Notes: a model not told the origin generated them from the sequence alone. A stretch of DNA of 64,000 bases from Candidatus Levyibacteriota bacterium (GCA_963722305.1 CAVRKE010000002.1:586678-650677), one strand, 5' to 3'. Shown: positions 30-63,718, counted from the stretch's first letter. Numbers and translations are program-made.

Positions 30-175
30 CTTGTGGTTACTCCGAGTGTTAGCTAAGTAAAGTAAATATAGGTAAGCCCAGTGAAAGTCTGGGGCTGTGC
101 CGCAACTGTTAAAGTCAGAAAACTATATTTACAACCTTTCACCCGAGCAGGTAATTTGTCCTTCTCGGGAAAAGA
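30..175 (+). ncRNA. cobalamin riboswitch candidate
   Basis: Positions 70-112 read AGGTAAGCCCAGTGAAAGTCTGGGGCTGTGCCGCAACTGTTAA, matching the conserved riboswitch core (GGUGAAA..CUGG.GCUG..CCGCAACUGUAA). A B12-box-like AGTCAGAAAAC follows at 113-124. It lies directly upstream of B12-related genes. Confidence 0.6.
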
Positions 176-189
176 GAAGGATTTTTTTA

Positions 190-902
190 TGGAAAAAACA
201 AGTGAAAATTTAACGGGAAAATTTTTCGATAATAAAGGAATAATCATTATTTTCATAGTAGTGTTTTCCTTGCTTATCCCGTCTGTTTTTGCTTTTCAAA
301 ATTCACCAATCAATAAACAGACGGCGGTGTTGGGGTTGGCGGCAAAAGCTAATTCGTCATTTCCAACCCCGACTCCGCTTCAACCGGCGGTTTCTGTCCC
401 GACACCAACCGGTGTTCCCACTCCCACCCTGATTGTCACTCAGGCTCCGACTCCGACACCAACTATCACACCAACCCCGACATTAACTCCAACGCCAACC
501 GCGGCTACTCCGACTCCAACGCCGACAGTAACCCCTTCGCCGACACCAACCAGTGTGCCGACCCCCACACAAACCGACACTCCCACCCCAACTCCTACCA
601 CCCTTAAAATTCAAATCGGTATAGATTACGCCGGACAAAGGCCAACTGATTCTGATACGACTTCAGTTAATCAAGGACAAACCGCTTGGGATGCGGTGGT
701 AGCGGCAGTAGGCATCAGCAACATTCAATATACGGATTACGGTGGAAGCATGGGGATTTTTATTACCGGTTTTAATGGCGTTAACGCGGCCTCAAATCAG
801 TATTACGAATTTGAAGTCAATGGTGTATCATCAAACGTAGGAGTTTCCAGCTATAAAGTCAATGACGGCGACAAACTGAATTTTGTTTTAACCAGTGATT
901 AA
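190..902 (+). CDS. membrane-anchored PT-repeat protein with C-terminal DUF4430-like (transcobalamin-like) domain; candidate extracellular B12-binding protein
   Basis: ORF 81..902 with a likely true start at the ATG at 190 (MEKTSENL...) followed by a hydrophobic helix. It has a long Pro-Thr linker. The C-terminal ~100 aa (TAWDAVVAAVG...NGVSSNVGVSSYKVNDGDKLNFVL) resembles the DUF4430 fold. It shares an operon context with riboswitch, ECF S component and PduO. Confidence 0.45.
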
Positions 903-1425
903 CATGCATAAATTTAAAAATCTTAGCGGTCCGTTTTTAGTCATTTTTAGCGCGGCTTTAATCAGGCTTTTGCCGCATCCGCCAAACTTTACGCCGATTG
1001 CGGCCATGGCCCTTTTTGGCGGTGCTTACTTAAACAAAAAATTTGCTTTTAGCGTCCCGTTGGGAGCGATGTTTATTTCCGACATTTTTTTGGGTTTTCA
1101 TTCAACCATGCCTTATGTATACGGCAGCTTTATTTTGGCAGGTTTAATTGGTTTATGGCTTAAAAAGCATAAAAGTGCGAAAAATGTCCTTTGCTCAACG
1201 CTTCTATCATCAATCTTATTTTTCTTAATCACCAATTTTGGGGTGTGGGCGCAAGGGTGGTATCCAAGAAACTTAAGCGGTCTCTGGGAAAGCTATGTCA
1301 TGGGAATTCCCTTTTTCAAAAATACTGTTGCCGGCGACCTTTTCTACAGCGGAATTTTCTTCGGGACCTATGAATTGGTTCAGCTTCTTGTAAGCAAATA
1401 CAGCGTCAATAAAGCACATTCTTAA
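895..1425 (+). CDS. ECF transporter S-component-like membrane protein (CbrT-like, candidate cobalamin-specific)
   Basis: 176 aa with 5-6 predicted TM helices. Start overlaps upstream stop (operon). Context is B12 riboswitch plus PduO. Confidence 0.45.
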   Translation: MINMHKFKNLSGPFLVIFSAALIRLLPHPPNFTPIAAMALFGGAYLNKKFAFSVPLGAMFISDIFLGFHSTMPYVYGSFILAGLIGLWLKKHKSAKNVLCSTLLSSILFFLITNFGVWAQGWYPRNLSGLWESYVMGIPFFKNTVAGDLFYSGIFFGTYELVQLLVSKYSVNKAHS

Positions 1426-1434
1426 GGAGGATTT

Positions 1435-1980
1435 ATGCCAATTTACACCAAGTTCGGCGACAAAGGTAAAACTTCGCTATTTGGCGGAAAAACCGTTTCC
1501 AAGGGAGACTTACGGATTGAAGCCTACGGGAATTTGGATGAGCTGAATAGTTTTCTGGGCGTGGTTCTTTCTCAAGTCAAAGATAAAAAAATAAAAGCAG
1601 AGCTTCTACAAATTCAAAATGATTTATTTGAGATTGGCGCCAATCTGGCCGACGCAACGAAGCGAAAAAACCAGGAATTGGGACAAAAATTAAACACCCG
1701 GGTTTTGGAATTTGAAAAGAGAATAGATTTATTGACAACGAAACTGCCAAAACTGACTAACTTTATCTTGCCTTCGGGCAGGAGCGGTGCGCTGTTGCAC
1801 TTCGCCCGGACAATTGCCAGACGGGCCGAAAGAAGAACAGTGGTCTTAGCCGAAAAAGAAAAGGTTCTTCCCGCAGTGCTTATTTATCTAAACAGGCTTT
1901 CGGATTTACTCTTCACTTTTGCGCGAAGCATTAACTATCAGGAAAAGCAAAAAGAAACTATTTGGTCTGCAAAACCCTAA
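1435..1980 (+). CDS. pduO: PduO-type ATP:cob(I)alamin adenosyltransferase
   Basis: N-terminus MPIYTKFGDKGKTSLFGGKTVSKGDLRIEAYGNLDELNSFLG is the hallmark of the PduO/MMAB family. It has an RBS GGAGG 6 nt upstream. Confidence 0.8.
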   Translation: MPIYTKFGDKGKTSLFGGKTVSKGDLRIEAYGNLDELNSFLGVVLSQVKDKKIKAELLQIQNDLFEIGANLADATKRKNQELGQKLNTRVLEFEKRIDLLTTKLPKLTNFILPSGRSGALLHFARTIARRAERRTVVLAEKEKVLPAVLIYLNRLSDLLFTFARSINYQEKQKETIWSAKP

Positions 1981-2484: not shown

Positions 2485-4851
2485 ATGGGACCGAGACTGG
2501 AGATGGCGAACATTTTAGCTTTGTTGGTGCCCCTAACTGTAGTGGTGGTTGTATTATTACTTGTCGCCGGAGTTGTTGCCGGAGTAGGCTACCTTGTGCT
2601 GCTTTGGCTGCGAAACAGCGGCAGGGAAGGGCAATCCCTTGAGTCAACTCTTATTCAGGTAACCGTGCCCAGAGATAACGAGGTCAAAATTGACGCGGCG
2701 GAACAATTTTTTGCCAGTTTTGTCGGAATTAAAGCCAGCGGAATGTTCTCCTTCCTCAGATATAGGCCTCATATTGCTTTTGAAATAGTCGGTATGCCGG
2801 AAGACATCCGTTTTTATGTTTATGCCCCAAACAAATATAAAGATTTGGTGGAAAAGCAGATTAATGCATCATACCCGGACGCGGAAATAAAAGAAGTGGA
2901 CGAAAAAACTTCCAAAGAAGGCTATATTGTCGGCAACGAATACAACATTTTTTCCAAAGAGGGCAGAGTCGCTTTTGCCTCTTTTAAACTGGCCGATTCA
3001 AATTACAAACCAATTAAAGTTTTTAAAGATTTGGCGGTTGATCCGATGTCTTCTCTAACTTCGGTTTTGGCAAAGATGGGCCAGGGGGAGGGAGCGGCCA
3101 TTCAACTGATAATCTCCGGAGCGGATTCCGGCTGGAGCAAGAAAGGCCGAAAGTACATTGCTTCGACCAAAAAGGCCGAATCAAATCCGGAAACTGCCAA
3201 ATACTCGGCAGACCCGAAAGAATTGGAAGGAGTAGAAAATAAAATTTCCAAGCCGGGGTTTTACGCGGTGATAAGAGTCGTTGTCTCGTCAAGTTCACAA
3301 GAAGCGGCGGAGGCGCATTTGGCAAACATTGTCAGTGTTTTTGACCAGTTTAACGGTATCAATAAATTCAAGAAGAACAAGAATTGGATTAAAGGCAATT
3401 TTATCTCCGATTTCATTTACCGCTATTTGCCGGATCGGAATATGGCCATTTTGACCAGCGAAGAACTGGCCGGAATTTTCCACTTTCCTAATAAAAGCGT
3501 GGTGACGCCCCATATTCATTGGCTAAATGCCAAGCGGGCGCCGGCGCCGGCGCAAATCCCCAGCTCCGGCCTGTTCTTGGGTACCAGTACTTTTCGGGGC
3601 ATTGCTAAACCGGTTTACATTCAAAAAGACGATAGGAGGAGGCACATGTATGTGATTGGAAAAACCGGTGTCGGAAAATCGGAATTTTTGAAAGAGATGA
3701 TTTTGCAGGATATTAAAAATGGTGAAGGGGTTTGCTTTATCGACCCGCATGATACCATCGACAAACTGTTGCCACTAATTCCGCCGGAGCGGGCCGAAGA
3801 CGTTATCTTATTTGATCCCTCCGACACCCAACGGCCGATGGGTTTAAACATGCTGGAAGCGCAAACCGAAGAGGAGAAGCATTATATTGTCTCCTCAATT
3901 GTCGGGCTAATGTATAAACTGTATGATCCGAACAAAACCGGAATTATCGGACCAAGATTTGAGCATGCGATTAGAAACGCAATGCTCACAGTTATGTCGG
4001 AGAAGGGCAGTACCTTCATCGAAGTGGTTCGCGCCTTAACCGATGCCAATTTTGTCCAGGAATTGTTGCCGAAAGTGACCGACCCGATTGTCAGGCGCTA
4101 CTGGACCGACCAGATTGCCCAGACCAACGATTTCCATAAGTCCGAAGTGCTTGATTACATTGTTTCTAAATTCGGCCGTTTTGTCACCGATAAAATGATG
4201 CGTAATATAATCGGGCAGTCGGCCTCCGCTTTTGATTTTCGTAAAGTGATGGACGATGGTAAAATTCTGTTGGTTTCTTTGTCCAAAGGAAAAATCGGCG
4301 AGGAAAATGCCAGTTTCTTGGGGCTTATTTTGGTGCCGAAAATTTTGGTGGCAGCGATGAGTAGGCAAGATATTCCGGAAGAAAGCAGGCGTGATTTTTA
4401 TCTTTACGTTGACGAGTTTCAGAATTTTGCCACTCCCGATTTTGCTCAGATATTGTCGGAAGCAAGAAAATACAGACTCAACTTAGTTGTTGCCAACCAG
4501 TTTATCGGACAAATGGACGAAGACGTGAAAAACGCTATTTTTGGCAACGTTGGAACTTTAGTATCATTCAGGGTGGGAGTAACCGATGCAAATTATTTAG
4601 CTCATGAATTCCAGCCGGTATTCACCGAGGCAGATTTAATCAATGTTGATGTCTATAATGCCTACGTTAAAACCATTGTCCACAACGAGCCGATGAATCC
4701 TTTCTCGATGGATTTAACCCGCGATATGGCCAAAGCGGCAAGTATGGAAAACCCGCGCGTGGCGGAGCTAATTAGGGAACTCTCCAGACTAAAATACGGT
4801 AAAGAAATCAAAAGCCTCGAGGCCTCAATTGCACAGAGAGCCAGACTGTAG
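2485..4851 (+). CDS. membrane-anchored P-loop NTPase of the type IV coupling protein (VirD4/TraG/TraD, DUF87-like) superfamily
   Basis: 788 aa with an N-terminal TM helix. Walker A is VIGKTGVGKS. Walker B-like is LYVDEFQNF, followed by ARKYRLNLVVANQ, typical of the TraG/TraD C-terminal region. Confidence 0.55.
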   Translation: MGPRLEMANILALLVPLTVVVVVLLLVAGVVAGVGYLVLLWLRNSGREGQSLESTLIQVTVPRDNEVKIDAAEQFFASFVGIKASGMFSFLRYRPHIAFEIVGMPEDIRFYVYAPNKYKDLVEKQINASYPDAEIKEVDEKTSKEGYIVGNEYNIFSKEGRVAFASFKLADSNYKPIKVFKDLAVDPMSSLTSVLAKMGQGEGAAIQLIISGADSGWSKKGRKYIASTKKAESNPETAKYSADPKELEGVENKISKPGFYAVIRVVVSSSSQEAAEAHLANIVSVFDQFNGINKFKKNKNWIKGNFISDFIYRYLPDRNMAILTSEELAGIFHFPNKSVVTPHIHWLNAKRAPAPAQIPSSGLFLGTSTFRGIAKPVYIQKDDRRRHMYVIGKTGVGKSEFLKEMILQDIKNGEGVCFIDPHDTIDKLLPLIPPERAEDVILFDPSDTQRPMGLNMLEAQTEEEKHYIVSSIVGLMYKLYDPNKTGIIGPRFEHAIRNAMLTVMSEKGSTFIEVVRALTDANFVQELLPKVTDPIVRRYWTDQIAQTNDFHKSEVLDYIVSKFGRFVTDKMMRNIIGQSASAFDFRKVMDDGKILLVSLSKGKIGEENASFLGLILVPKILVAAMSRQDIPEESRRDFYLYVDEFQNFATPDFAQILSEARKYRLNLVVANQFIGQMDEDVKNAIFGNVGTLVSFRVGVTDANYLAHEFQPVFTEADLINVDVYNAYVKTIVHNEPMNPFSMDLTRDMAKAASMENPRVAELIRELSRLKYGKEIKSLEASIAQRARL

Positions 4852-4922: not shown

Positions 4923-5615
4923 ATGGCAAGAGTTATTGACAGGCAAAAAGCAATTGATTTAAGAAAGCAAGGTAAAACTTACGGTCAAATAAGGCAAGAA
5001 TTAGGAATTTCAAAAAGTACACTTTCAGATTGGTTAAGTAAATATCCTCTTAGCGAAAGACAGCTAACATTACTAGGAAATAATAAAAAGAACAGTAGGC
5101 AAGTTGCTATAGAAAAGACGATAATTGCCAAGCAAAAGAAACATCAATCCCGCATTGAATCTGCATATAAAGAACAGAAAAAATATTGGGTTTTTCTGTC
5201 TCAAAAAGAGCTCGAAATTGCCGGACTTTTTCTTTATTGGGGAGAGGGAAATAAAAGGTTAAATGGCTCGGTATTTATAAATAATACTGACCCAAGCGTT
5301 TTGAAATTTGCTTTGTATTGGTATATAAAAGGTTTGAGTGTTCCAAAAGAAAAAATAAAAGTAGACTTACATCTTTATAGCGATATGAATATACAAGAAG
5401 AGATTTCTTTTTGGAGTAGAACATTAAAATTGCCGGTGTCGCAATTCAGAAAACCTTATATTAAAGCCAGTACTAGGGTAGGGATAGATCAAAAAGGTTT
5501 TGGTCATGGAACTTGCGGTTTAAATGTTAATGATGTTTTGTTAAAAGAAAAAATCATAATGGGAATAAAGGCAATTTCAGATTATTATGCGTTAAAACTT
5601 GAGGCTATGATATAA
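4923..5615 (+). CDS. HTH domain + LAGLIDADG-like domain protein (paralog of 8713..9402)
   Basis: N-terminal resolvase-like HTH (GKTYGQIRQELGISKSTLSDW). The central motif AGLFLYWGEGNK resembles a degenerate LAGLIDADG motif. It has a strong promoter TTGACA-17-TACTAT at 4867-4895. Confidence 0.45.
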   Translation: MARVIDRQKAIDLRKQGKTYGQIRQELGISKSTLSDWLSKYPLSERQLTLLGNNKKNSRQVAIEKTIIAKQKKHQSRIESAYKEQKKYWVFLSQKELEIAGLFLYWGEGNKRLNGSVFINNTDPSVLKFALYWYIKGLSVPKEKIKVDLHLYSDMNIQEEISFWSRTLKLPVSQFRKPYIKASTRVGIDQKGFGHGTCGLNVNDVLLKEKIIMGIKAISDYYALKLEAMI

Positions 5616-5627
5616 TTATCACAGCTT

Positions 5628-5699
5628 GCGCCCGTAGTTCACCGGCAGAACAATTGTCTTATAAACAATAGGTATTTGGTTCGACTCCAAGCGGGCGCA
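5628..5699 (+). tRNA. tRNA-Ile (anticodon UAU)
   Basis: Hand-folded cloverleaf: acceptor GCGCCCG/CGGGCGC; D-arm GTTC-ACCGGCA-GAAC; anticodon arm ATTGT-CTTATAA-ACAAT; T-arm TTTGG-TTCGACT-CCAAG; discriminator A. An extended -10 TGaTATAAT lies upstream. CCA is not encoded. Confidence 0.75.
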
Positions 5700-6429: not shown

Positions 6430-7290
6430 TTACAGTTCGGTTAAAACGGAGGTTTCTTTGCCGCGTTCCGGCACGTATTGCAGGTATCTTTCGGTGGTCG
6501 AAATTCGTTTGTGTCCCAACACTTTGGACAAAACCATCAACGATACGCCGTGTTTTAAGTGGTGGGAGACAAAAGTATGCCTTAAATCGTTGACTTTAGC
6601 ATCTTTTATTTCCGCTAATCTGAAATATCTTTCCACCGCGGTTCTAATGTTTCTGATTAAAAACGGTTTGCCGGATTTGGTAACGAAAATATGAGTTTCG
6701 GTAACTTTGGGCCTTACTTCCAAATACCTATTTAATGCTTCCTCGGCTCTTTTATTCAAGGGAACAATTCTTTCTTCGTGTTTTTCAAACGGAGCAATGT
6801 GTAAACCGGCTTTAGTCATGTCCGAAAGTCTTAAATTTGCCAACTCGCCGATTCTAATGCCGGTTTGCAGCAGTAATTCGATCACCGCAAACATGCGCGG
6901 ATCGTTTCTGGCGGCATCGCGTAAGGCTCTGTATTCGGTTGGCGTGAGCATTCTTGGTGCGGCCAGCTGGTATTTGGGGTGGGAGATTAAAAGCGAAGGG
7001 TCGTCGGTAACGTATTCGTTCACTTTCAAAAATCGGTAGAAAGTCCTGGTGGAGTTAATTTTTCTGGAAACTGACTTTGGAGTGTAGCCCTCTTTGGTTA
7101 ATTTGGCTAAAAAAGCTTCAATATCGTCCTTACTTACTTCATGAACATTATTTCTTTCCAGTTCTTCCAAAAACGTCAAAAGCTGGTCAATATCCTTGCC
7201 GTAGGCAACAACAGTCGAATTTGATTTTTTATTCTGTTTTAAAAAATTCTTAAACTCTTCGTGGGCATCGCGAAGTCCAATTTGCTTCAT
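6430..7290 (-). CDS. tyrosine site-specific recombinase (XerC/XerD/phage-integrase family)
   Basis: 286 aa with the C-terminal catalytic region ...LRHTFVSHHLKHGVSLMVLSKVLGHKRISTTERYLQY and an N-terminal SAM-like domain. Confidence 0.8.
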   Translation of the reverse strand: MKQIGLRDAHEEFKNFLKQNKKSNSTVVAYGKDIDQLLTFLEELERNNVHEVSKDDIEAFLAKLTKEGYTPKSVSRKINSTRTFYRFLKVNEYVTDDPSLLISHPKYQLAAPRMLTPTEYRALRDAARNDPRMFAVIELLLQTGIRIGELANLRLSDMTKAGLHIAPFEKHEERIVPLNKRAEEALNRYLEVRPKVTETHIFVTKSGKPFLIRNIRTAVERYFRLAEIKDAKVNDLRHTFVSHHLKHGVSLMVLSKVLGHKRISTTERYLQYVPERGKETSVLTEL

Positions 7291-38629: not shown

Positions 38630-39025
38630 ATGGTTTCAACTCAGCTTAATTTTAAAAAAACACCGGCGCGGTTGGCGATAAACGGTTTTCTTTCAAATTC
38701 AAAGATTCCGGTAGACGTTGAGCAAATAATCAAATATTTAAGATCAAAACAGCTTGATACCAATAAAGTAACTGTTTATCGGAATTTAGACTTTCTTTTC
38801 AAAAATAAGATAATCGAGAGGGTAGAGTTTGGGGAAGGGAAGTATCGATATGAGCTGAAAAAAAATCACCACCACCACCTAATTTGCACCAATTGCGGTA
38901 AAATTCAAGACGTTGAGACAAACGCAGTTGAAAAATTAGAGAAACAGATTCAAGAAGATAAACGTTTTAAGGTACAAAGTCATTCTCTGGAGTTTTTCGG
39001 ACTTTGTGCCAATTGCCAAAAATAA
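38630..39025 (+). CDS. zur: Fur family transcriptional regulator (likely Zur)
   Basis: Fur-family HTH, His-rich HHHH, and CxxC...CxxC (CTNCGK...CANCQK). Sits upstream of znuABC. Confidence 0.75.
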   Translation: MVSTQLNFKKTPARLAINGFLSNSKIPVDVEQIIKYLRSKQLDTNKVTVYRNLDFLFKNKIIERVEFGEGKYRYELKKNHHHHLICTNCGKIQDVETNAVEKLEKQIQEDKRFKVQSHSLEFFGLCANCQK

Positions 39026-39029
39026 AAAT

Positions 39030-39947
39030 ATGAATAAAAAATTAATACTATTGTTGGGAATCTTAATCGTAGTATTTGCGGTAGTTTTACTGTTTAATTT
39101 TGGCTCAACGAAAAAAACCGGCGACGGAAAACTGCAAGTCGCTGCCTCTTTTTACCCGATGTATTTTTTTGCGTCAAGAATCGGCGGAGATAAGGCAGAT
39201 GTGGTCAGTATTACGCCGGCGTCAGCAGAGCCTCACGATTATGAGCCGACTACCCAGGATTTAGTCGGTATCCAGAATAGCAATATGTTAGTCTTAAACG
39301 GCGGGGCTTTGGAAGCCTGGGGAAATAAAATTAAAGGGCAACTGCCTGCAAATGTTCTGGTTGTGACCGCAGGAGAAGGGCTAGCCAATAAACAGCTTAA
39401 CGAAAACGGACAGATAATTCAGGATCCGCATGTTTGGCTTGATCCGATTTTGGCCAAAAAAGAAGTTGAGGTTATCGAAAAAGGGTTTGAAAAACTTGAT
39501 CCAAAAGATAGCTCATATTTTCAGGCAAACGCTCAAAAACTGGATGGCGAGCTTGATGTTCTTAATGCAGATTATACGTACGCCTTCACAAATTGCGTGC
39601 AAAAAGATTTTGTGACTTCCCATGCTGCTTTTGGGTACTTGGGTGCGCAATACGGGATTACTCAAATTCCAATTTCCGGCGTTTCGCCGGATGAGGAGCC
39701 CTCAACGCAAAAAATGGTTGAAATTACCAACTTAGTCAAGGCTAAAAATATCAAAGTAATTTTTTTTGAAAGCCTAGTCAGTCCAAAATTATCAGACACG
39801 ATTGCCAACGAAACCGGCGCCAAGGCGATGGTTTTGGATCCGATTGAGGGATTAACTAAAGATGAAATCCAAAGCGGCCAAAATTACTTGACAATTATGA
39901 GGCAAAACCTCAATAATCTACAAATAGCCTTACAATGCCAGAAATAA
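39030..39947 (+). CDS. znuA: metal ABC transporter substrate-binding protein (ZnuA/TroA family)
   Basis: Signal anchor followed by the cluster-9 SBP fold (HDYEPT, DPHVWLDP). Confidence 0.75.
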   Translation: MNKKLILLLGILIVVFAVVLLFNFGSTKKTGDGKLQVAASFYPMYFFASRIGGDKADVVSITPASAEPHDYEPTTQDLVGIQNSNMLVLNGGALEAWGNKIKGQLPANVLVVTAGEGLANKQLNENGQIIQDPHVWLDPILAKKEVEVIEKGFEKLDPKDSSYFQANAQKLDGELDVLNADYTYAFTNCVQKDFVTSHAAFGYLGAQYGITQIPISGVSPDEEPSTQKMVEITNLVKAKNIKVIFFESLVSPKLSDTIANETGAKAMVLDPIEGLTKDEIQSGQNYLTIMRQNLNNLQIALQCQK

Positions 39948-40687
39948 ACCACAAAACCACCATCATTGAACTTAAAAACGTTTTCTTTGCTTACGAGAAA
40001 GAATTTGTCGTTAAAGATGTTTCTTTAGTAGTGCATAAAGGCGATTACTTAGGAATTATCGGGCCAAACGGAGGAGGGAAATCAACGCTTTTAAAACTGA
40101 TTTTAGGACTTCTAACACCGACCAAAGGGGAAATTGAGCTGTTTGGAAAACCGATCGCCAAATTCAAAGACTGGCCAAAGTTTGGTTATATCTCACAAGT
40201 GGTAACGCATACCGACCCGCATTTTCCGATGACTGTTCAGGAAGTCGTGGCCATGGGAAGGTATCCAAGACTGGGACTGATGCATTTTCCAACCAAAAAA
40301 GACAAACTCAAAGTTCAAGAGGCTTTGGAACAGGTGGAGATGTGGGAGTTTCGTAGCCGCTTAATCGGCGATTTGTCCGGTGGGCAGAAACAACGGGTGT
40401 TTATTGCCCGGGCTCTGGCTGGGGGCCCTGAAATAATTGTTTTAGATGAGCCAACAGCCGGAGTCGATGTTAAAACCCAGAAACAATTTTATACATTATT
40501 ACAGAAACTAAATAAAGAATTAGAATTGACGCTTATTCTTGTTTCTCACGAGCTCGATGTTATTGAACACGAAGCAACTGAGATTGCCTATATCAACGGA
40601 GAATTAGTTTATTACGGAGCGGCTGACCAGTTTGTGCATAGTGAATACTTCGAAAAATTAACCGAGAAAGGGGAGCATCATGTTTGA
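39935..40687 (+). CDS. znuC: metal ABC transporter ATP-binding protein
   Basis: Walker A GPNGGGKST, signature LSGGQKQR, Walker B ILDEP. Confidence 0.8.
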   Translation: MPEINHKTTIIELKNVFFAYEKEFVVKDVSLVVHKGDYLGIIGPNGGGKSTLLKLILGLLTPTKGEIELFGKPIAKFKDWPKFGYISQVVTHTDPHFPMTVQEVVAMGRYPRLGLMHFPTKKDKLKVQEALEQVEMWEFRSRLIGDLSGGQKQRVFIARALAGGPEIIVLDEPTAGVDVKTQKQFYTLLQKLNKELELTLILVSHELDVIEHEATEIAYINGELVYYGAADQFVHSEYFEKLTEKGEHHV

Positions 40688-41480
40688 TATTTTTCAGTAC
40701 GGATTTATTTTGCGGGGAATCGAAGTAGGGTTGATTATCGGCGCGATATCACCTTTAATCGGTATTTTTTTGGTGCTTCGCCGCTATTCACTCATTGCCG
40801 ATACGCTTTCCCATGTGTCTTTGGCGGGAGTTGCGATTGGTCTTTTACTAAACGTTAATCCACTTTTAACAGCAATTGGCGTCTCGGTTTTGGCATCATT
40901 TGTCATTGAAAAATTAAGGCTTTCCAAAAAAGTTTACGGCGAGTCGGCCTTATCGATTTTTCTTTCCGGAAGCCTAGCAATTGCTCTAATCATCCTTAGC
41001 CTTGCCCATGGATTTAGCGTTGACCTTTTCAATTATCTTTTTGGGAGTATCTTAACGGTGAAGCAATCGGATGTCTATATTATTTTGGGAGTTGGAATTA
41101 TCGTTCTTCTTTCAATAATTTTACTTTACAAAGAGCTGATTTACATTACTTTTGATGAAGAAGCGGCTAAAGTAGGTGGAATCCCGACGAAACTGATTAA
41201 TAATATTTTTATTGTACTGGCCGCTCTAACAGTTGCTTTGGCAATTCCAATCGTTGGTATCCTTTTGATATCGGCTTTAATTGTAATTCCGGTTGTGGCT
41301 GCCTTACAGCTTAAAAAAAGTTTTTGGAAAACACTTGTTTTAGCTGAAATATTCTCTTTAATCTCGGTGTTTTTAGGAGTAGTAGCATCTTTCTATCTTA
41401 ATCTTCCTGCGGGGGGAGCAATAGTAGTTACAACGCTGATTATTTTTGTTCTGACTCTGTTTTATCAAAAGATGAAGTAG
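40680..41480 (+). CDS. znuB: metal ABC transporter permease
   Basis: 266 aa, 8 TM helices, ABC-3 family pattern. Confidence 0.8.
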   Translation: MFDIFQYGFILRGIEVGLIIGAISPLIGIFLVLRRYSLIADTLSHVSLAGVAIGLLLNVNPLLTAIGVSVLASFVIEKLRLSKKVYGESALSIFLSGSLAIALIILSLAHGFSVDLFNYLFGSILTVKQSDVYIILGVGIIVLLSIILLYKELIYITFDEEAAKVGGIPTKLINNIFIVLAALTVALAIPIVGILLISALIVIPVVAALQLKKSFWKTLVLAEIFSLISVFLGVVASFYLNLPAGGAIVVTTLIIFVLTLFYQKMK

Positions 41481-55153: not shown

Positions 55154-56242
55154 GTGAAACCTATGAAATCAAAAGCACATAAGCCGGCATTGTATCATCC
55201 ATGGGGATACACAACCTGGAGAGCAATTGAAAAGGGAAAAGATAACTACTGGGATTATCTTCGTATTCAGGCAAAGTTGAATAAACTATCTCCAAAAGGA
55301 CAACTTCATTTGGAATGGGTAATCTTTTACTACACGTTTGGAGAAAGAAACGTTAGTAAAACCACTAAGCACTTTGGTATTGCAAGAAAGACTCTAAGAG
55401 TCTGGTTAAAACGGTTTGACGGTAAGTTTATCAAAAGTCTTGAAGAGAAACCGAAAAGACCAAAACAAGTTAGGACATGGATGGTATCTCAAAAAGAAGA
55501 GGAGCAAATTATTGCGCTTCGAAAAGAAAACATGGAGCTTGGTAAAAGAAAATTAAAGATTCTCTACGCTAGAAAATACCAGGAGAATATCTCAACTTGG
55601 AAGATTGAACGGGTAGTAAGAAAGCACAAATTATTCCAAGAGAAAAAGAACGGATACGTTAAAAGAAGACCTAAACAGCCTCGAATTCGTATCCATAAGG
55701 TAAAAGAACTATTACAGGAATATCCTACGGGAGTAGTCTGGCATACGGACAGTATTATTATCTGGTGGTATGGCACAAGAAAAGTTATCTTCACAGCCTT
55801 AGAGAACAAAACTAAGCTTGGCTTTGCCAGAGTATACAAAACAAACTCTTCGGCAAATGCTGCAGACTTTCTGAAACGACTAAGCTATTTAAGCAATAAT
55901 CAGCTTGCCATTATTCACTCTGACAATGGATCTGAGTTTGATAAGGATTTTGCAAGAGTATGTGAAATACTTTCCATCCGACAAGTATTCTCCCGCCCCC
56001 ATACGCCCAAGGATAATCCTTGTCTTGAGAAGTTTAATCATACAGTACAAAGAGAGTGGCTTAGTTTTTCTGTCATAGGGCTTGATGAAATTGATGAAGC
56101 AAATATTGATTTAACAGAATGGTTAGTCAAATACAACAGTATTCGTCCGCATCAAGCCCTTGACTACAAAACTCCTTTGGACTATGCTTATGAGCAATCT
56201 CCTCAACTGGTACCAATGACCCCAGCCCAATCATGTAATTGA
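55154..56242 (+). CDS. IS481/IS3-like transposase (HTH + rve integrase core)
   Basis: DDE integrase core (HTDS, SDNGSEF, PHTPKDNPCLEKFNHT). RBS AAAGGAGGTG upstream. Confidence 0.8.
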   Translation: MKPMKSKAHKPALYHPWGYTTWRAIEKGKDNYWDYLRIQAKLNKLSPKGQLHLEWVIFYYTFGERNVSKTTKHFGIARKTLRVWLKRFDGKFIKSLEEKPKRPKQVRTWMVSQKEEEQIIALRKENMELGKRKLKILYARKYQENISTWKIERVVRKHKLFQEKKNGYVKRRPKQPRIRIHKVKELLQEYPTGVVWHTDSIIIWWYGTRKVIFTALENKTKLGFARVYKTNSSANAADFLKRLSYLSNNQLAIIHSDNGSEFDKDFARVCEILSIRQVFSRPHTPKDNPCLEKFNHTVQREWLSFSVIGLDEIDEANIDLTEWLVKYNSIRPHQALDYKTPLDYAYEQSPQLVPMTPAQSCN

Positions 56243-56249
56243 CCGAATA

Positions 56250-56438
56250 GTGTATAATAAAAACATGAAATTGGAAGATTTAATCAAATTACAAAACAAA
56301 TGGGTTGCATTTTCCAAAGATAGAAAAAAAGTGGTCGAAAAAGCGAGCACTTTGGAAAATCTACTAAAAAAAATTGGTGATCAAAGAGATCTGGTTGTTT
56401 CTTTTATGCATCCCGCCGACAAATTTCTTTCACCTTAA
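56250..56438 (+). CDS. small protein upstream of aspartic protease
   Basis: ORF of 62 aa. Stop 13 nt before the protease ATG. Confidence 0.35.
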   Translation: MYNKNMKLEDLIKLQNKWVAFSKDRKKVVEKASTLENLLKKIGDQRDLVVSFMHPADKFLSP

Positions 56439-56451
56439 ATTCAATTGCCCA

Positions 56452-56880
56452 ATGAAAAATATCACCTTTTACTACGTTCCTGAAGTTGGAAAAGATTTAA
56501 CCACAGGAAAAGTCTTTGAAATTTTAAGGCCTAAAATTCCAGTTCGTTTATCCGTTAATCATAACGTTTCAAAAATATTAGTTGATTGCCTTTTTGATAC
56601 AGGAGCTGATAGAAATTTGTTCCCAGCTGCTTGGGGAAGAAGCTTGGGATTGAAAATAGAGAAAGGGAAATTGGTTAAAACAATGGGAATCGGCGGAAAA
56701 GAAATCAAGGCTTATGCCCACCAGGTTGTTTTATATATCCAAGGGAATAAAATTATCACGGAAGCCGATTTTACCGACGAAAATAATACGCCATTACTTG
56801 GTAGAGGAGGTTTTATGAACCATTTTGACGATATAGTTATAAACGAGAAGAAAAAATTCATCAAATTATCTTTTGCCTAA
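56452..56880 (+). CDS. retropepsin-like (clan AA) aspartic protease
   Basis: Catalytic motif LFDTGADRNL. ORF 56374, with a likely start at the ATG at 56452. Confidence 0.55.
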   Translation: MKNITFYYVPEVGKDLTTGKVFEILRPKIPVRLSVNHNVSKILVDCLFDTGADRNLFPAAWGRSLGLKIEKGKLVKTMGIGGKEIKAYAHQVVLYIQGNKIITEADFTDENNTPLLGRGGFMNHFDDIVINEKKKFIKLSFA

Positions 56881-58608: not shown

Positions 58609-58914
58609 GTGAGGAGAAGGCCCATTGAATTTTTCCGATTTATTTCGGAAGAGTTTAATGGGAAGATTTTTAATCTACTCATAATGCCGATAATGGATGC
58701 CTAGGAGGCTTTGACCGAGGAAGGACGCATACGGCGGCGATACTCGTTGGGGAGGTGCCATAAACCTTTGATCCAGCGGTTTCCGAATGGGGTAACCCAC
58801 CAGCTTGTCTGGTGGCCAAAAATGAACTTGGACTCGTAAGAGTTCATATAACTTTTGGCCGGGTACGGCGTGAACTGAAACATCTAAGTAACGCCAGGAA
58901 TATAAATCATCCGA

Positions 58915-58946
<32 letters not shown>

Positions 58947-60743
58947 CAGTCTAAACTTGTGCGCAGCACAAGAAATCACAAATCACAATGACCAAATCTC
59001 AATTAATTTTGGGATTTGGATTTTGGAGCTTGGGGTTTCTCGCGTTGCGCGCGAGGGTTGCAGGGCAGACGATATTCGATTAAATTCAGGTAGCAGAAGG
59101 ATCCGGAATGGTCCTCCACAGAGAGTGAAAGACTCGTACGCGAAACTTGAATTTACGATAGTCTGTTCCTAAGTACCATGGGGTACGGTGAAACCCTGTG
59201 GGAATCTGGGGCGGCCACGTTCCAAGACTAAATATCAAAGTCTACCGATAGTGAACTAGTACCGCGAGGGAAAGGTGAAAAGCACCCCGGGAGGGGAATG
59301 AAATAGAACTGAAATTGTCGGCTAACAAGCAGGCAGAGTCGAGCGCAAGCGAGATGATGCCGTGCCTATTGAAGAATGAACCGGTGAGTTATTGATTGCA
59401 GTATAGCTTAACCAAGCTTGTCTTGGGGAGGCGTAGTGAAAGCGTGCCCTAACCGGGCGATTAATTGCAGTCATTAGACCCGAAACTGGGTGAGCTAACC
59501 TTGAGCAGGGTGAATGTTGACGAAAGTTAGCAGGAGGCCCGAACTCGTAGCAGCAGCAATTGCTTGAGATGACTTGAGGTTAGGGGCAATATGCCAAACG
59601 AACCCAGAGATAGCTGGTTCTCCCCGAAATATATTTTGGTATAGCGGTTATTTGTAATACGCTGAGGTAGAGCACTGGATGATCATTTGCGTCGCAAGAC
59701 GTAGGGATTAACCAAACTCCGAATGCAGCCGTATGTTTAATAACTAGTCAGACTCGTCGGGCTAAGCCGATGGGTCAAAAGGGAAACAGCCCAGACTCCC
59801 ATCTAAGGCCTCTAAATAAAGGCTAAGTTTTGAACGAAGTCAAATTTCATAGACAACCAGGAAGTTGGCTTAGAAGCAGCCATCTTTTAAAGAAAGCGTA
59901 ACAGCTCACTGGAGGATGATATTTGGCGCGAAAAATTTATCGAGGATTAAGCCTTTTGCCGAAGTTGGAGTTCCTATTTTATTAATTTAAGGTAGGGAGG
60001 TAGGGGAGCGTTCTATTTGCAGTGAAGCCGAGGTGTAAACCGAGGTGGAGCGGATAGAAGTGAGAATGCCGGTATGAGTAGCGAAATGCATGTGAGAATC
60101 GTGCACGCCGAATATCCAAGGTTTCCTCCGCAATGTAAGTCAGCGGAGGGTTAGTCGGTCCTAAGGGTGTGCCTCGTTAAAGGGGCGTAGCCCGATGGAT
60201 AAGTCGTTGAAATTCGACTACAGAATGTGAACCGTTCAAGGGAAGGACGAAAGTGGAAGAGCTGAGTCCCGTTCGCGGGATTTAAGCAGTAAGATAGTGA
60301 TAACTGGTAAATCCGTTATCGTGTTTAATCAAGCTGCAAATAAAAGGGATTAGTAATAATTCCGATTTAGTAGCTTTCAGTTTCCGAGAAAATTTTCATT
60401 GAGTCCCAAGAGCAATCGAAGGACAAATTCATATTTTTCCGTACCGCAAACCGACACAGGTGGATTGGTCGAGAAGACTAAGGCGATCGAGTGACAGATG
60501 TTCAAGGAACTCGGCAAAAAAGCTAGGCGTAACCTATGGGAGATGCCTTGTCCTGATTAGTTTCAGGATTGCAACAAAAGTTTATTTACCGACTGTTTAT
60601 CTAAAACACAGGTCCCTGCAAAGCCGAAAGGCAAAGTATAGGGGCTGACGCCTGCCCAGTGCTGGTAAGTCAAATATCGTGAATAAAACGTCGCAAGATG
60701 TCAGTTTGTGATATAAGCTCCAGTAAACGGCAGCAGTAACTAT

Positions 60744-61452
60744 AAGAAATTGTAGTTATAAAATTTAGCTATATGCTGGAAAATCTGTACCGCAACTGTT
60801 TAAAACAGACGGTTGAAGTATCTGGCGTTACTATGTTATATTTAATGTAGTGAAAAAACGTCCAGCGCAGACAATCAGCAGGAAAGACCTTGATCGGAAG
60901 AATTTAGGCTATTTTATAGCGGGGTTTGTAGAAGGAGAAGGGAGTTTTAATGTATCACTTCGTAAAAAAAGTGATTATAAGGTTAAATGGCAAATTGTTT
61001 TAAGTTTTAATGTTTCCCAAAAAGATCCATCAGTTCTTTTTATAATAAAAAAAGAACTAGGATGTGGAATAATTAAAACAAGAAAAGATGGTTTGCATTC
61101 TCTAGATATTACAAACTCTCAAGAAATAGTCAAAAAAGTTATTCCATATTTCACAAGATATCCTTTACTATCTAATAGTAAAATTAATAACTTTAATATA
61201 TTCTGTAAAATCTCAAAGCTTGTTGAAAGCGGAGAGCATAGAGATATTAAGGGATTAAAAAGAATTTTACTTTTAAGAGAAAAATTAAATGAAGGTAAAG
61301 GAAGAACAAGGAAATATGGATATAATGATATATTTCCGATTGAGGAATCCTCAGAGACTATACGCTAAACCCGCTTATAAGCGGTGATGATATAGTCCGA
61401 CCTCATGGACGACCATGAGACTCTGTATTCAATCAGAGCAAGTAACAATGTG
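60744..61452 (+). mobile_element. group I intron 1 in 23S (E. coli position ~1917 region) with LAGLIDADG ORF
   Basis: The 5' exon ends ...GTAACTAT. The R element TCAGAGACTATACG overlaps the ORF end. The S element GATGATATAGTCCGACC is present. The intron ends ...CAATGTG before the 14-nt exon AACTGTTCTATGGT. Confidence 0.65.
60850..61368 (+). CDS. LAGLIDADG homing endonuclease (intron-encoded)
   Basis: Single-motif LAGLIDADG: LGYFIAGFVEGEGSF. Confidence 0.8.
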   Translation: MKKRPAQTISRKDLDRKNLGYFIAGFVEGEGSFNVSLRKKSDYKVKWQIVLSFNVSQKDPSVLFIIKKELGCGIIKTRKDGLHSLDITNSQEIVKKVIPYFTRYPLLSNSKINNFNIFCKISKLVESGEHRDIKGLKRILLLREKLNEGKGRTRKYGYNDIFPIEESSETIR

Positions 61453-61466
61453 AACTGTTCTATGGT

Positions 61467-61712
61467 AACACTTCGTTGCTTTAGAAAAAGTGTTTTAGAA
61501 ATCTAACTATATGCTGGAATAACTCAGAATCCAACAGTACCAGAAATGGTAAAAATCTGTTTGGTGGAGTCAATCAGCAGGGAAGATCCCGATCTCTCGG
61601 GAAACCCTCAGAGACTAAACGTTAGAGTCGCCATTCAGGCGATAAGATATAGTCCGACCTCCGATGCGAATCGGAGAATCTAGATTTGCAAGATCTAGGA
61701 TTAACATAATTG
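61467..61712 (+). other. group I intron 2 in 23S (E. coli ~1931 region), ORF-less
   Basis: R element GGGAAACCCTCAGAGACTAAACG and S element ATAAGATATAGTCCGACC. Ends ...AACATAATTG immediately before exon AGCGAAGTTCC. Confidence 0.6.
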
Positions 61713-62183
61713 AGCGAAGTTCCTTGTCGGGCGAGTTCCGACCCGCACGAAAGGCAGAACGAGTAAATAACTGTCTTGAACATCTACTCGGCGAAATTGA
61801 GATGGCCGTGAAGACGCGGCCTAATTGTACATGGACAAAAAGACCCCGGGAGCTTTACTGTAGCTTGGCATTTGAAAGTATATTCTAACTGTTTAGAATA
61901 GGAGGGAGCTTTGGCAATAGTGAAATACCTCTCTTTGGAATATGCAATCATTACCTCTAGCCGCATAAAAATTCGGCAGAGGGACAGTGTCTGGCGGGCA
62001 GTTTAACTGGGGCGATTGACTCCTACAATGCAACGGAGTCGTATAAAGGTTGGCTAACTGCGGATAGAAATCGCAGTGATAGTGCAAACGCATAAGCCAG
62101 CTTGACTGCGAGACCTACAAGTCGAGCAGGTGGGAAACCAGATGTTAGTGATCCTGTATGGCGTAGTGGTACGCCTACAGCTT

Positions 62184-62216
<33 letters not shown>

Positions 62217-62247
62217 GATCGCATCCAAGCGTCCACAGCGACGATGC

Positions 62248-62305
<58 letters not shown>

Positions 62306-62320
62306 CCGGCTGTTCGCCGG

Positions 62321-62355
<35 letters not shown>

Positions 62356-62363
62356 AAGACAGT

Positions 62364-63146
62364 AAAGTTGACCGTTGCTGTCTTCCTTCAAGCGTTTTGA
62401 TACCCTAAAGAGGGAATTGAAGGGCTCTTAATGAGTATAAATCTAGCTAAATGCTGGAAACTCCGAGAATCTCAGGCTACTTGACAAATTAAAAAGAATA
62501 GAGTTATTCTATCTCTATGTCAAGTAAAAATGTCTTGAGTGCGGACAATCAGCAGGCAACTAGGCAAGTGTCAGATGAATATCTAGCAGGTTTTACTGAT
62601 GGAGAAGGTTGTTTCTATGTGGGATTTGGTAAAAGAAACGATTTGCCGCTAAAATGGCAAGTGATTACCGAATTTCACGTCAGCCAAAATCCGGGCGGGA
62701 GAAACCTTTTAGAGTTGTTCAAAAAACGTCTCGATTGCGGTTATTTAAAGCCCAATCATGCTAAAAATCCAAAAGATAAATCTTGGATTTTGATAGTTAA
62801 AGATAGGGATGATCTAAGAAAAAAGGTAATTCCTTTTTTCAAGAATAATCCGCTTTTAACTTCAAAACAACAAGATTTTATAATTTTTTCAAAAGTGCTT
62901 CAAATTATCGAACAAGGTAAGCATTTAAGAAAGACAGGCTTGAAAGAAATTGCAGAATTAGTTTTTAGCAGTCAGAGAACAACTAATAAAAGATATTCAA
63001 AACAAATGATACTTTCTTAGTACCTCAGAGACTATGTGTTAGACCCGCCAATGAGGCGAGGAAGATATAGTCCGAACTGCATAGCGATATGTAGAGCGTA
63101 GTAGAAATACTTACGCCCTCCGAAAAAACGGAGAGTAACATAATTG
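62364..63146 (+). mobile_element. group I intron 3 in 23S (E. coli position ~2593 region) with LAGLIDADG ORF
   Basis: The 5' exon ends ...GTAAGACAGT. R is CCTCAGAGACTATGTG and S is GAAGATATAGTCCGAAC. Ends ...AACATAATTG before exon TCGGTCTCTATCC. Confidence 0.65.
62517..63020 (+). CDS. LAGLIDADG homing endonuclease (intron-encoded)
   Basis: Motif YLAGFTDGEGCF. Paralogous to the 60850 ORF (shared KWQ..., VIPFF blocks). Confidence 0.8.
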   Translation: MSSKNVLSADNQQATRQVSDEYLAGFTDGEGCFYVGFGKRNDLPLKWQVITEFHVSQNPGGRNLLELFKKRLDCGYLKPNHAKNPKDKSWILIVKDRDDLRKKVIPFFKNNPLLTSKQQDFIIFSKVLQIIEQGKHLRKTGLKEIAELVFSSQRTTNKRYSKQMILS

Positions 63147-63279
63147 TCGGTCTCTATCCTGTACAATCGTTGATATTTGAGAAGATTCGTCCCTAGTACG
63201 AGAGGACTGGGATGAGGGAATCCCTGGTGTGCCGGTTGTTTCCGAATAGGAGCAGCGCCGGGTAGCTAGATTCCCAACC

Positions 63280-63310
<31 letters not shown>

Positions 63311-63604: not shown

Positions 63605-63718
63605 TTTCTGGTAATTTGTGCGAAGTGGCACCACCTCTTCCCATTCCGAACAGAGAAGTGAAACGCTTCAGCGCCTACGATACTGATTTATATTGGGACA
63701 ATAGGTCATTGCCAGAAA
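63605..63718 (+). rRNA. rrf: 5S ribosomal RNA
   Basis: CCCATTCCGAACAGAGAAGTGAAACG...AGCGCC.ACGATACTG core. Terminal helix TTCTGGTAA/TTGCCAGAA. Confidence 0.85.

Follow-up and report, generated by a model that had tools for sequence, protein, structure and literature searches.

We found a locus in a CPR bacterium that we read, with a probability of roughly 80%, as a B12-repressed salvage operon feeding the AdoCbl-dependent reductase NrdJ, which is encoded directly upstream. The locus lies in a 64-kb stretch of DNA (hereafter, the window) from an organism with a tiny genome (~679 kb), and the order of its elements is nrdJ, a cobalamin riboswitch, a DUF4430 gene, a DUF6580 gene, and pduO. The original prediction had described the riboswitch and the three genes as a self-consistent salvage module, and comparative genomics well beyond the window backs this description. 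The new aspect is the putative transporter, which belongs to an uncharacterised family distinct from both CbrT and BtuM.

Many microbes need B12, but few make it. The genomes of CPR bacteria are minimal, and these organisms rely on their neighbours; thus, their uptake systems reveal their lifestyle. For most auxotrophs, the membrane importer of B12 is unidentified, as stated in the report on BtuM (PMC6072759). Our locus and 80 related loci provide a concrete candidate importer family, DUF6580, which, if the more tentative reading of the family given below is true, would fill part of this gap in auxotrophs without BtuCDF. In our literature search, no mention of DUF6580 or PF20221 was found, and the combination of "cobalamin riboswitch" and Patescibacteria gave no papers.

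Layout of the locus and the genes flanking the putative transporter

All features described here are on the + strand. The window opens with the 3' end of nrdJ (1-52), which encodes a class II ribonucleotide reductase dependent on AdoCbl and ends in the stop codon TAG (50-52). The gene was read beyond the start of the window on an upstream-extending Logan contig (L001), and its 280-aa partial product matched Ribonuc_red_lgC (2.8e-6) and TSCPD (2.2e-15). The original prediction did not mention nrdJ and let the regulatory element start at position 30, which falls within this gene; the aptamer, assigned to RF01689, starts at 54. Only one base separates the nrdJ stop codon from the aptamer, and transcription would therefore most likely enter from nrdJ.

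Three ORFs with stop codons follow at 189-902, 904-1425, and 1435-1980. They are closely spaced, with gaps of 1 nt and 9 nt, and with the called starts at 189, 904, and 1435 they do not overlap, contrary to what had been claimed. The start of ORF1 had been placed at 81, but the GTG at this position is inside the aptamer and was thus rejected. The start is ATG 189, and the public gene calls agree.

ORF1 (189-902) encodes a protein of 237 aa, the length also given in the public gene call. Its C-terminal region at 603-899, similar to the transcobalamin beta-domain, matched PF14478 (DUF4430) at 681-893 with an E-value of 4.6e-10 and 40.2 bits (cut-off, 23.8). A search with the 80-aa DUF4430 domain in a word-indexed protein database gave 8 proteins; the family was instead rebuilt from the related loci, and the profile was made from 47 domains. 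This profile matched haptocorrin (4kki, 1e-5), transcobalamin (5no0, 8.4e-5), and intrinsic factor (2pmv, 1.5e-3), as well as the bacterial protein 3u7z (5.5e-4). The Pfam match above the cut-off and the profile matches to B12-binding beta-domains bear out the earlier assignment of the C-terminus to a DUF4430-like fold, and ORF1 is homologous to the beta-domains of the three carriers named above. Transcobalamin has an alpha-toroid partner, whereas ORF1 has the beta-domain only, with a Pro/Thr-rich linker of about 80 residues inserted (360-602). A gene for an alpha-toroid partner was observed in three related loci. Most counterparts of ORF1 in the related loci, and its close database homologues, are 100-150 aa long, too short to hold such a linker.

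A hydrophobic signal/anchor segment (residues 17-36; 237-296) and the linker suggest export or anchoring of the ORF1 protein. In our model, the protein would be membrane-anchored or secreted, and the linker would extend the DUF4430 domain outward, where the corrinoid would be captured. The binding of B12 by bacterial DUF4430 proteins is a predicted role. A surface B12-scavenging role and an N-terminal export signal or anchor were proposed for bacterial DUF4430/SLBB proteins in 2007 (Burroughs et al., PMC1796856).

ORF3 (1435-1980; 181 aa) encodes a PduO-type ATP:cob(I)alamin adenosyltransferase, in agreement with the original prediction. The product matched PF01923 (Cob_adeno_trans; E 7.6e-56, 189.3 bits against 24) and passed the equivalog-domain model TIGR00636 (PduO_Nterm; 188.7 bits, cut-off 108.45). 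We found 37 relatives in the PDB, including B. subtilis YvqK (1RTY, the best match, 1.3e-41), L. reuteri PduO (3CI1, 3.1e-33), and human MMAB (2IDX, 1.7e-29). ORF3 is homologous to these three proteins over the full length (E 1e-41 to 1e-29). It shares the N-terminal TKxGDxGxT motif with the PduO-type enzymes, and this single-domain 181-aa form shows nothing notably different from them. A strong Shine-Dalgarno sequence for ORF3, AAGGAGG (1424-1430), overlaps the stop codon of ORF2. The enzyme would supply AdoCbl to NrdJ.

DUF6580 and its probable role in the import of corrinoids

ORF2 (904-1425; 173 aa) encodes a membrane protein that matched PF20221 (DUF6580) with an E-value of 3.6e-57 and 193.6 bits (gathering score, 27). 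Its AlphaFold (AF2) model had a pLDDT of 93 and a pTM of 0.86. In a Foldseek search of the PDB with this model, the top five matches were all S-components: BtuM, FolT, ECF-FolT, 4huq_S, and RibU. The TM-scores (query-normalised) were 0.53-0.61 and the probabilities 0.82-0.99, with weak E-values of 0.16-0.74; the best match was BtuM with hydroxycobalamin (8ovv; TM 0.61, probability 0.99). The predicted structure is the six-helix S-component fold. The original prediction of an ECF S-component-like protein stands as far as the small polytopic form and the fold are concerned, but the Pfam family is DUF6580, and the match to ECF_trnsprt (PF12822) was below the threshold (13.6 bits vs 30.7, E 0.068). 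From the predicted fold and the gene context in 80 other genomes, ORF2 is a putative corrinoid importer, which would most likely carry the corrinoid over the membrane.

The DUF6580 family comprises 6267 clusters at 50% identity (E up to 1e-3), found in CPR, Bacteroidota, Ignavibacteriota, and Omnitrophota. Complete CPR genomes with a DUF6580 gene include CP066685.1 and OY969116.1. Longer members were inspected for Rosetta-stone fusions, and their N-terminal extensions, which resemble mis-called starts or read-through, were uninformative. The invariant polar residues of the family are H25, N28, D60, H66, N111, W115, and Y120. With the topology deduced from the positive-inside rule, these residues are predicted to be in or near the outward-facing loops, on the substrate side of S-components.

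We compared ORF2 with the two S-component-type B12 importers, and its membership in either family was rejected because the defining features were missing. A PDB search with the single ORF2 sequence gave no matches. BtuM of Thiobacillus denitrificans (Rempel et al. 2018, PMC6072759; PDB 8OVV) is a solitary transporter of about 20 kDa, similar in size to ORF2, and has an invariant cobalt-ligating cysteine, C80. No column of the DUF6580 alignment reaches more than 21% cysteine, and the family has the invariant His25 instead; BtuM chains were not matched by the DUF6580 profile at E up to 10. BtuM is mostly proteobacterial, in contrast to the phyla listed above. In the case of CbrT, the rejection is on sequence: the protein fragment matches the Pfam family ECF_trnsprt (E 3.2e-9, residues 9-102) and not DUF6580, and the DUF6580 profile reached it (6fnp_A) with an E-value of 0.37 and 13.8 bits.

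We then considered the gene context of DUF6580 in 80 loci from other genomes. They were taken as the closest among 566 or more relatives, which biases the sample; the following counts apply to this sample. At least one B12 marker was present in 74 of the 80 loci. A cobalamin-clan riboswitch on the same strand was found in 48 loci, and all 52 riboswitch matches in the 460 kb scanned were on the strand of the DUF6580 gene. DUF4430 was observed in 41 loci and a TonB-dependent receptor in 25, and no locus had both. An adenosyltransferase gene was present in 29 loci (PduO in 23 and the non-homologous CobA/BtuR in six), and NrdJ in 24. A third of the loci are from Bacteroidota or Ignavibacteriota and adjoin BtuB-like receptors, and four Bacteroidota loci have a riboswitch with DUF6580 as the sole gene behind it. 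A point against our reading is that, in about ten sister genomes, the riboswitch is located after pduO, governs another gene (family X), and does not precede the transporter genes. Family X was sought in the window and was absent.

CPR cells have no outer membrane. The distribution of the partner genes suggests a division of labour, in which B12 is captured by a transcobalamin-like surface binder in cells that lack this membrane and by BtuB in diderms. We put forward, as a possible and still tentative extension of the operon model, that DUF6580 is a third, unrecognised family of S-component-fold corrinoid importers, widespread (>6000 clusters) and free of an ECF module. The invariant loop-1 residue His25 may handle cobalt, as against the cysteine in BtuM, and the substrate would come from a lineage-specific outer partner, namely a tethered DUF4430 protein in CPR or a BtuB-type TonB receptor in diderms. 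In our main reading of the operon as well, ORF2 would most likely work independently of a dedicated ECF module, in a BtuM-like manner.

The same operon logic would also hold if DUF6580 were a group-II ECF S-component that docks on a shared EcfA-EcfA'-EcfT encoded elsewhere, with ATP-driven import of B12 like that by ECF-CbrT. We regard this reading as possible, with reserve, and one ground for it is the nrdJ-cbrS-cbrT-pduO cluster of L. delbrueckii (Santos et al. 2018, PMC5997447; PDB 6FNP). The gene order is identical to that in the window (class II reductase, small gene, S-component-type membrane protein, PduO), and the CbrT module is encoded elsewhere. The logic of the cluster is also alike: B12 is imported by an auxotroph and converted to the adenosyl form for use by NrdJ (PMC5997447). 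A DUF4430 gene adjoins rtpR in L. rhamnosus, and by this analogy cbrS is probably the counterpart of the DUF4430 gene. CbrT was also the only PDB match of the DUF6580 profile, and the similarity of ORF2 to ECF_trnsprt, weak as it is, recurs in one member of the family (P0093) that has both Pfam matches. Bacterial SLBB/DUF4430 genes are, moreover, often located beside CbiO/CbiQ-like genes (PMC1796856).

Several observations are against docking on an ECF module. No ECF gene was found in the 64-kb window of this ~679-kb genome, and its sole ABC ATPase (39935-40687) belongs to ZnuABC. No cluster of ABC ATPases recurred beside DUF6580 among the 80 closest loci. The AxxxA motif in helix 1 of S-components serves for docking on EcfT. 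CbrT has a helix 1 of this type and needs EcfAA'T, whereas the motif was found in none of the 47 aligned DUF6580 members. ECF modules are uncommon in Bacteroidota and Ignavibacteriota, the source of the third of the sampled loci that have BtuB-like receptors. The best fold match was the solitary BtuM, and BtuM itself had been predicted from neighbouring BtuB-type receptors (PMC6072759), a pairing mirrored by the diderm relatives of ORF2.

It is improbable that heme, cobinamide, a lower-ligand precursor, or another compound takes the place of complete cobalamin as the substrate of the DUF4430/DUF6580 pair. The L. sakei operon Lsa1836-1840, which is a precedent for the pairing of a transcobalamin-like protein with an S-component, combines ECF genes with transcobalamin alpha- and beta-like genes and was assigned to heme uptake (bioRxiv 10.1101/864751). 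The reviewers of the SLBB paper also warned of varying ligands (PMC1796856), and CbrT carries cobinamide as well (PMC5997447). However, the pair is flanked by a cobalamin riboswitch, nrdJ, and an adenosyltransferase gene here and in many genomes, and its diderm counterparts are paired with BtuB-type TonB receptors under riboswitch control. Genes for corrinoid remodelling were not recurrent in the neighbourhoods of the 80 closest DUF6580 loci.

It is similarly improbable that DUF6580 is a sensor, or that it anchors the DUF4430 protein to the membrane or acts as its receptor there, with another protein as the importer. Some sensor kinases have membrane modules of the S-component fold (PMC11109136), but the DUF6580 proteins are about 175 aa long and have no output domain. 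The 25 loci with an outer-membrane B12 receptor adjoining DUF6580 have no DUF4430 gene, and there the missing step is the inner-membrane importer. The predicted position of the invariant polar residues at the substrate site of S-components also points to transport.

The class II riboswitch and its expression platform

The region 54-131 is a cobalamin riboswitch aptamer of class II (RF01689, AdoCbl-II). In a cmscan analysis of the whole window, it matched the covariance model over its full length (positions 1-81 of 81) with 53.7 bits, above the gathering score of 36.5, and an E-value of 2.6e-10 for 64 kb. The original prediction of a cobalamin riboswitch in front of the genes was correct at the level of the clan, but its family, RF00174, was not the best one at this site. 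RF01689 belongs to clan CL00101, for which one best-scoring family is reported per site; RF01689 was the match kept, and RF00174 was ruled out as the best family at 54-131. Orthologous aptamers are present at the equal position in L002, L005, L008, L014, L023, L028, L044, L064, and L075 among the related loci. The predicted ligand is cobalamin; the selectivity for particular cobalamins varies among class II riboswitches and is unreadable from the sequence (PMC6158498). The text of the CbrT paper does not contain the word riboswitch (PMC5997447).

The aptamer is followed by a J1/13 linker of 9 nt (132-140). The linker in the env8 riboswitch has 7 nt, and the function was kept with longer linkers of up to ~27 nt (PMC5028336). 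The P13 stem is formed by 141-143 and 150-152, and the L13 loop (144-149) has the sequence CGAGCA. The P13/L13 motif was found in 20 of the 21 RF01689 matches. P13 was paired in 100% of cases, with compensatory changes in all three pairs, and its covariation score was reached by none of 500 shuffles. The L13 loop contains the G-A-G signature; in env8, two purines at this position are unpaired, which is a strictly conserved trait of the class II family (PMC5028336). From this sequence, L13 is a candidate kissing-loop partner of L5.

In the region from P13 onward, we found two alternative structures. In the centroid structure, CCCGAG (142-147) pairs with CUCGGG (164-169) to form an antiterminator (142-169), and this pairing is mutually exclusive with both P13 and the terminator. 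The intrinsic terminator (158-188), detected by a terminator scan and in the minimum-free-energy structures, consists of a 9-bp hairpin (158-182) and a T-run (182-188). The two structures are near-isoenergetic, with free energies of -17.8 kcal/mol for the terminator and -14.9 kcal/mol for the antiterminator. An antiterminator pair overlapping a terminator was observed in the window and in nine related loci. The 3' arm of the terminator contains a Shine-Dalgarno-like sequence, AGAAGGA (175-181), which would be buried by the hairpin.

These pairings suggest the following mechanism. When cobalamin is bound, L5 would kiss L13, and the P13 hairpin would be locked. CCCGAG would then be barred from CUCGGG, and the terminator would form; transcription would halt, and the Shine-Dalgarno sequence would be hidden. 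When B12 is scarce, the antiterminator would form, and the three proteins would be produced. That the RNA element is chiefly the terminator of nrdJ, with the three genes transcribed from an unregulated promoter of their own, is very improbable: the hairpin and U-tract are a competent terminator located 100-130 nt past nrdJ, but the U-tract directly adjoins ATG 189, so that a promoter would not fit between the switch and the genes. A scan of the final 400 nt of nrdJ gave no sigma-70-like site on the + strand (CPR promoters being poorly known), and the L13/antiterminator design is sensible only for conditional read-through.

The B12-repressed operon thus presents a class II riboswitch as a putative conditional terminator within an operon, located between the gene for a B12-consuming enzyme and the genes for B12 supply. 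Compared with env8HyCbl (PMC5028336), the Rfam family, the compact aptamer, the short J1/13 linker, P13, and the G-A-G of L13 are the same. Control in env8 is translational, with the ribosome-binding site contained in L13 (PMC5028336), whereas here some 40 nt lie between P13/L13 and the start codon downstream. The L13/P13 sequence here doubles as the 5' half of the antiterminator, and the terminator would also hide the Shine-Dalgarno sequence. In addition, the switch in the window is internal to an operon and immediately follows a coding gene. The close spacing at its 3' side is shared with relatives: of the 21 loci analysed, 12 have their first start codon 0-2 nt 3' of the U-tract.

The riboswitch, the genes around it and its reach

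The analysis confirms the original observation and, with corrections, supports the predicted B12 salvage module of three genes. From the sequence, the system would be an operon, repressed by B12, that captures, imports and adenosylates the vitamin for a ribonucleotide reductase. It is a variant of an already known type of module. The window begins inside a gene, and we extended it upstream by about 790 nt with L001, a public contig coding for a DUF6580 protein identical to that of ORF2. As the product of this upstream gene has the C-terminal end of a ribonucleotide reductase barrel and a TSCPD domain, it is NrdJ, the class II, adenosylcobalamin (AdoCbl)-dependent reductase. The nrdJ stop codon lies at 50-52 (+).

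The ORF list and family scans confirmed three co-directional genes, ORF1 to ORF3, on the + strand. They had been thought to overlap, but their starts at 189, 904 and 1435 leave gaps of 1 and 9 nt. GTG 81 was rejected as the start of ORF1, because this codon falls within the aptamer; ATG 189 yields a 237-aa product, the same as in public gene calls. ORF3 has a strong Shine-Dalgarno sequence (AAGGAGG, 1424-1430, +), and family scans and PDB relatives identified its product as the expected PduO-type corrinoid adenosyltransferase, which is unremarkable.

The Rfam scan detected a single riboswitch in the whole window, at 54-131 (+). The predicted cobalamin clan was correct, but the family was the compact class II (RF01689, AdoCbl-II; score 53.7 bits, gathering score 36.5, E = 2.6e-10, full model covered) and not RF00174. 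The aptamer starts one base past the nrdJ stop codon. Tight gene-aptamer junctions of 5-8 nt were also found after nrdJ in four loci of other genomes carrying a DUF6580 gene (L002, L008, L028 and L044); in L007 a junction of this kind follows pduO. No sigma-70-like site was detected on the + strand within the final 400 nt of nrdJ; promoters in CPR bacteria are poorly known. Because of the tight junction and the lack of such a site upstream, we infer that the switch is intra-operonic and sets whether transcripts from nrdJ read on. As class-II cobalamin riboswitches range from AdoCbl-selective to MeCbl-selective (PMC6158498), the form of cobalamin sensed here is not readable from the sequence.

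Downstream of the aptamer, the terminator scan gave a 9-bp hairpin (158-182, +), with AGAAGGA, a Shine-Dalgarno-like sequence, in its 3' arm, and a run of seven T (182-188, +) abutting ATG 189. RNA folding gave two near-isoenergetic structures, the terminator (-17.8 kcal/mol) and an antiterminator (-14.9 kcal/mol) in which CCCGAG (142-147) pairs with CUCGGG (164-169). Terminator and antiterminator overlap in nine related loci as well as in the window. We compared the window with 20 RF01689 matches beside DUF6580 genes in other genomes; in 12 of these 21 loci the first start codon lies 0-2 nt past the U-tract. The motif YCCGAGCAGR occurs 3' of the aptamer in 20 of the 21, including the window, and folds into a stem of 3-4 bp whose loop is CGAGCA. 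In 18 sequences this stem, P13, was 100% paired, with compensatory changes in all three pairs and a covariation score that none of 500 shuffles reached. In env8, a characterised class-II cobalamin riboswitch, ligand-dependent regulation requires L5 and the P13 loop to form a kissing loop; the P13 loop carries two unpaired purines, strictly conserved across the class-II family, and a 7-nt linker leads to the hairpin (PMC5028336). The 9-nt linker and the G-A-G loop signature of the window resemble these features, and thus we assigned 141-152 (+) to P13/L13. Bound cobalamin would stabilise the kissing loop and P13, which would keep CCCGAG from the antiterminator so that the terminator forms. Whereas L13 of env8 itself carries the ribosome-binding site, the L13/P13 sequence of the window would instead be withheld from the antiterminator.

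In the clade of the window, the transporter genes are not always under riboswitch control, since about ten sister genomes have the order nrdJ, DUF4430, DUF6580, pduO, riboswitch and then a gene of a family that we call X; in seven others X follows pduO inside the switch-controlled string. In all, X follows pduO in 18 loci, directly behind a cobalamin riboswitch in about 10 of these. The regulon therefore has at least one further member, an orphan family not found in the window (examples: L020:4351-5748, L010:4309-5391, L007:1331-2842 and L075:4127-5680). X is restricted to CPR (360-550 aa; 83 homologues, all annotated as hypothetical), matches no Pfam family, and has a C-terminal zinc-ribbon-like CxxC...CxxC and invariant E, S and C residues. 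Its confident AlphaFold model (pLDDT 82.5) had no PDB fold match (best TM-score about 0.1).

The predicted capture protein and the DUF6580 membrane protein

The ORF1 product has a hydrophobic segment (residues 17-36), a Pro/Thr-rich linker (58-138) and no lipobox in its sequence. As predicted, its C-terminus is a transcobalamin-like DUF4430 domain (165-235, E = 4.6e-10). We built a profile from 47 DUF4430 domains of related loci; it matched B12-binding beta-domains, namely those of haptocorrin (4kki, 1e-5), transcobalamin (5no0, an isolated beta-domain, 8.4e-5) and intrinsic factor (2pmv, 1.5e-3), and also 3u7z, a bacterial structural-genomics protein. The putative surface B12-scavenging role is not new; Burroughs et al. 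(2007) proposed that bacterial members of the DUF4430 clade are secreted or surface B12 scavengers (PMC1796856). Most DUF4430 relatives in related loci and close database homologues are 100-150 aa long, with an anchor and the domain alone; the long linker is particular to the lineage of the window. Three related loci (L064:1564-2979; L009:4066-5418, -; L045:29-1366) also code, adjoining the DUF4430 and DUF6580 genes, for proteins of roughly 450 aa that have the fold of the transcobalamin alpha-domain, a prenyltransferase-type alpha-alpha toroid. This observation suggests a split, two-gene transcobalamin in some CPR genomes.

The locus is valuable mainly because it gives DUF6580, the Pfam family of ORF2 (E = 3.6e-57), a well-supported assignment that can be tested. 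DUF6580 comprises 6267 clusters at 50% identity (E up to 1e-3; 4475 at E up to 1e-10) and was not mentioned in the literature searched. ORF2 scored only 13.6 bits against ECF_trnsprt, matched no NCBIfam model and had no PDB relative by single-sequence search. The sole PDB-sequence profile match of DUF6580 was CbrT of ECF-CbrT (E = 0.37). The AlphaFold model, built from 47 sequences (pLDDT 93, pTM 0.86), agrees with the predicted resemblance to ECF S-components: its five best PDB fold matches are all S-components (BtuM with hydroxycobalamin, FolT, ECF-FolT, 4huq_S and RibU), with a TM-score of 0.61 and a probability of 0.99 for BtuM, although the E-values are weak (0.16-0.74). S-components bind their substrates at outward-facing loops. 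The invariant or near-invariant polar residues of DUF6580 (H25, N28, D60, H66, N111, W115 and Y120) would lie in or beside loops that are extracellular by the positive-inside rule. ORF2 belongs to neither named B12 family: the invariant cysteine that defines BtuM (PMC6072759) is absent from DUF6580, and a CbrT fragment falls in ECF_trnsprt rather than in DUF6580.

DUF6580 loci in other genomes and energy coupling

Scanning a single genome per species gave at least 566 DUF6580 loci, of which the best 80, biased toward relatives at 45-78% identity, were kept. Their hosts are Patescibacteria, Ignavibacteriota, Bacteroidota, Omnitrophota, a Rokubacterium and a Nanoarchaeon. At least one B12 marker was present in 74 of the 80 and two or more in 52. 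The Rfam scan of all 80 (460 kb) yielded 52 riboswitches of the cobalamin clan, spread over 48 loci and all on the strand of the DUF6580 gene (only upstream in 30 loci, only downstream in 15, on both sides in 3); switch and gene share an operon-like string in 27. NrdJ was found in 24 loci, PduO in 23, the non-homologous CobA/BtuR adenosyltransferase in 6 and thioredoxin in 7. DUF4430 occurred in 41 loci and TonB-dependent receptors in 25 (Plug domain in 17 of 17 tested, beta-barrel in 16 of 17). Because the two never share a locus (0 of 80), they fit alternative outer capture devices feeding one inner-membrane protein. In four Bacteroidota loci (L029, L037, L062 and L072), DUF6580 is the sole gene after its own switch; a second switch comes next, in front of a TonB-dependent receptor and, after it, a beta-propeller protein that has a Por secretion tail and may be BtuG-like.

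Santos et al. described CbrT of L. delbrueckii within an nrdJ-cbrS-cbrT-pduO cluster (PMC5997447), the gene order of the window. In L. rhamnosus a DUF4430 gene adjoins rtpR (PMC9963975), which makes cbrS the probable counterpart of the DUF4430 gene. L. sakei has an ECF operon that includes secreted proteins resembling transcobalamin alpha and beta; its authors assigned it to heme (bioRxiv 10.1101/864751). The window differs from the nrdJ-cbrS-cbrT-pduO module in its transporter family and its intra-operonic class-II riboswitch, and possibly in energy coupling. The 64-kb window has no ECF gene; its only ABC ATPase with an LSGGQ signature belongs to a ZnuA/ABC ATPase/ABC-3 permease (ZnuABC) operon for Zn/Mn uptake (39006-41480, +). 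No ABC ATPase recurs among the 80 loci, none of the 47 aligned DUF6580 members has an AxxxA motif in helix 1, and the diderm relatives resemble the BtuB-BtuM situation. For these reasons we put ECF-independent action of ORF2 at a little better than even, and its use by an ECF module at about one in three.

Neighbouring genes in the window

A 151-aa ORF without a family match (2022-2477, +) lies 41 nt after pduO, with no terminator-like site in the gap, and is followed by a 788-aa VirD4/TrwB/DUF87-like ATPase with an N-terminal membrane segment (2485-4851, +). In 11-13 related CPR loci, homologues of these two genes likewise come after the B12 genes; they may share the B12 operon transcript, or this may be just synteny from close relatedness. 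A helix-turn-helix protein (4923-5615, +), a tRNA gene (5628-5699, +) and a tyrosine recombinase (6430-7290, -; Phage_integrase, E = 4.7e-29) near the ATPase gene form a possible border of an integrated element.

An rve-family, transposase-like integrase (55154-56242, +) and a small aspartyl-protease-like ORF (56374-56880, +) lie just upstream of the rRNA operon. In the region 58668-63717 (+), the 23S rRNA gene (3737 nt against a 2925-position model) holds a LAGLIDADG endonuclease ORF (60850-61368) as well as a group I intron (61457-61676). A second LAGLIDADG ORF (62517-63020) separates its main body from an LSU 3' fragment (63176-63324), followed by 5S rRNA; such an intron-bearing, split layout is typical of CPR rRNA operons.
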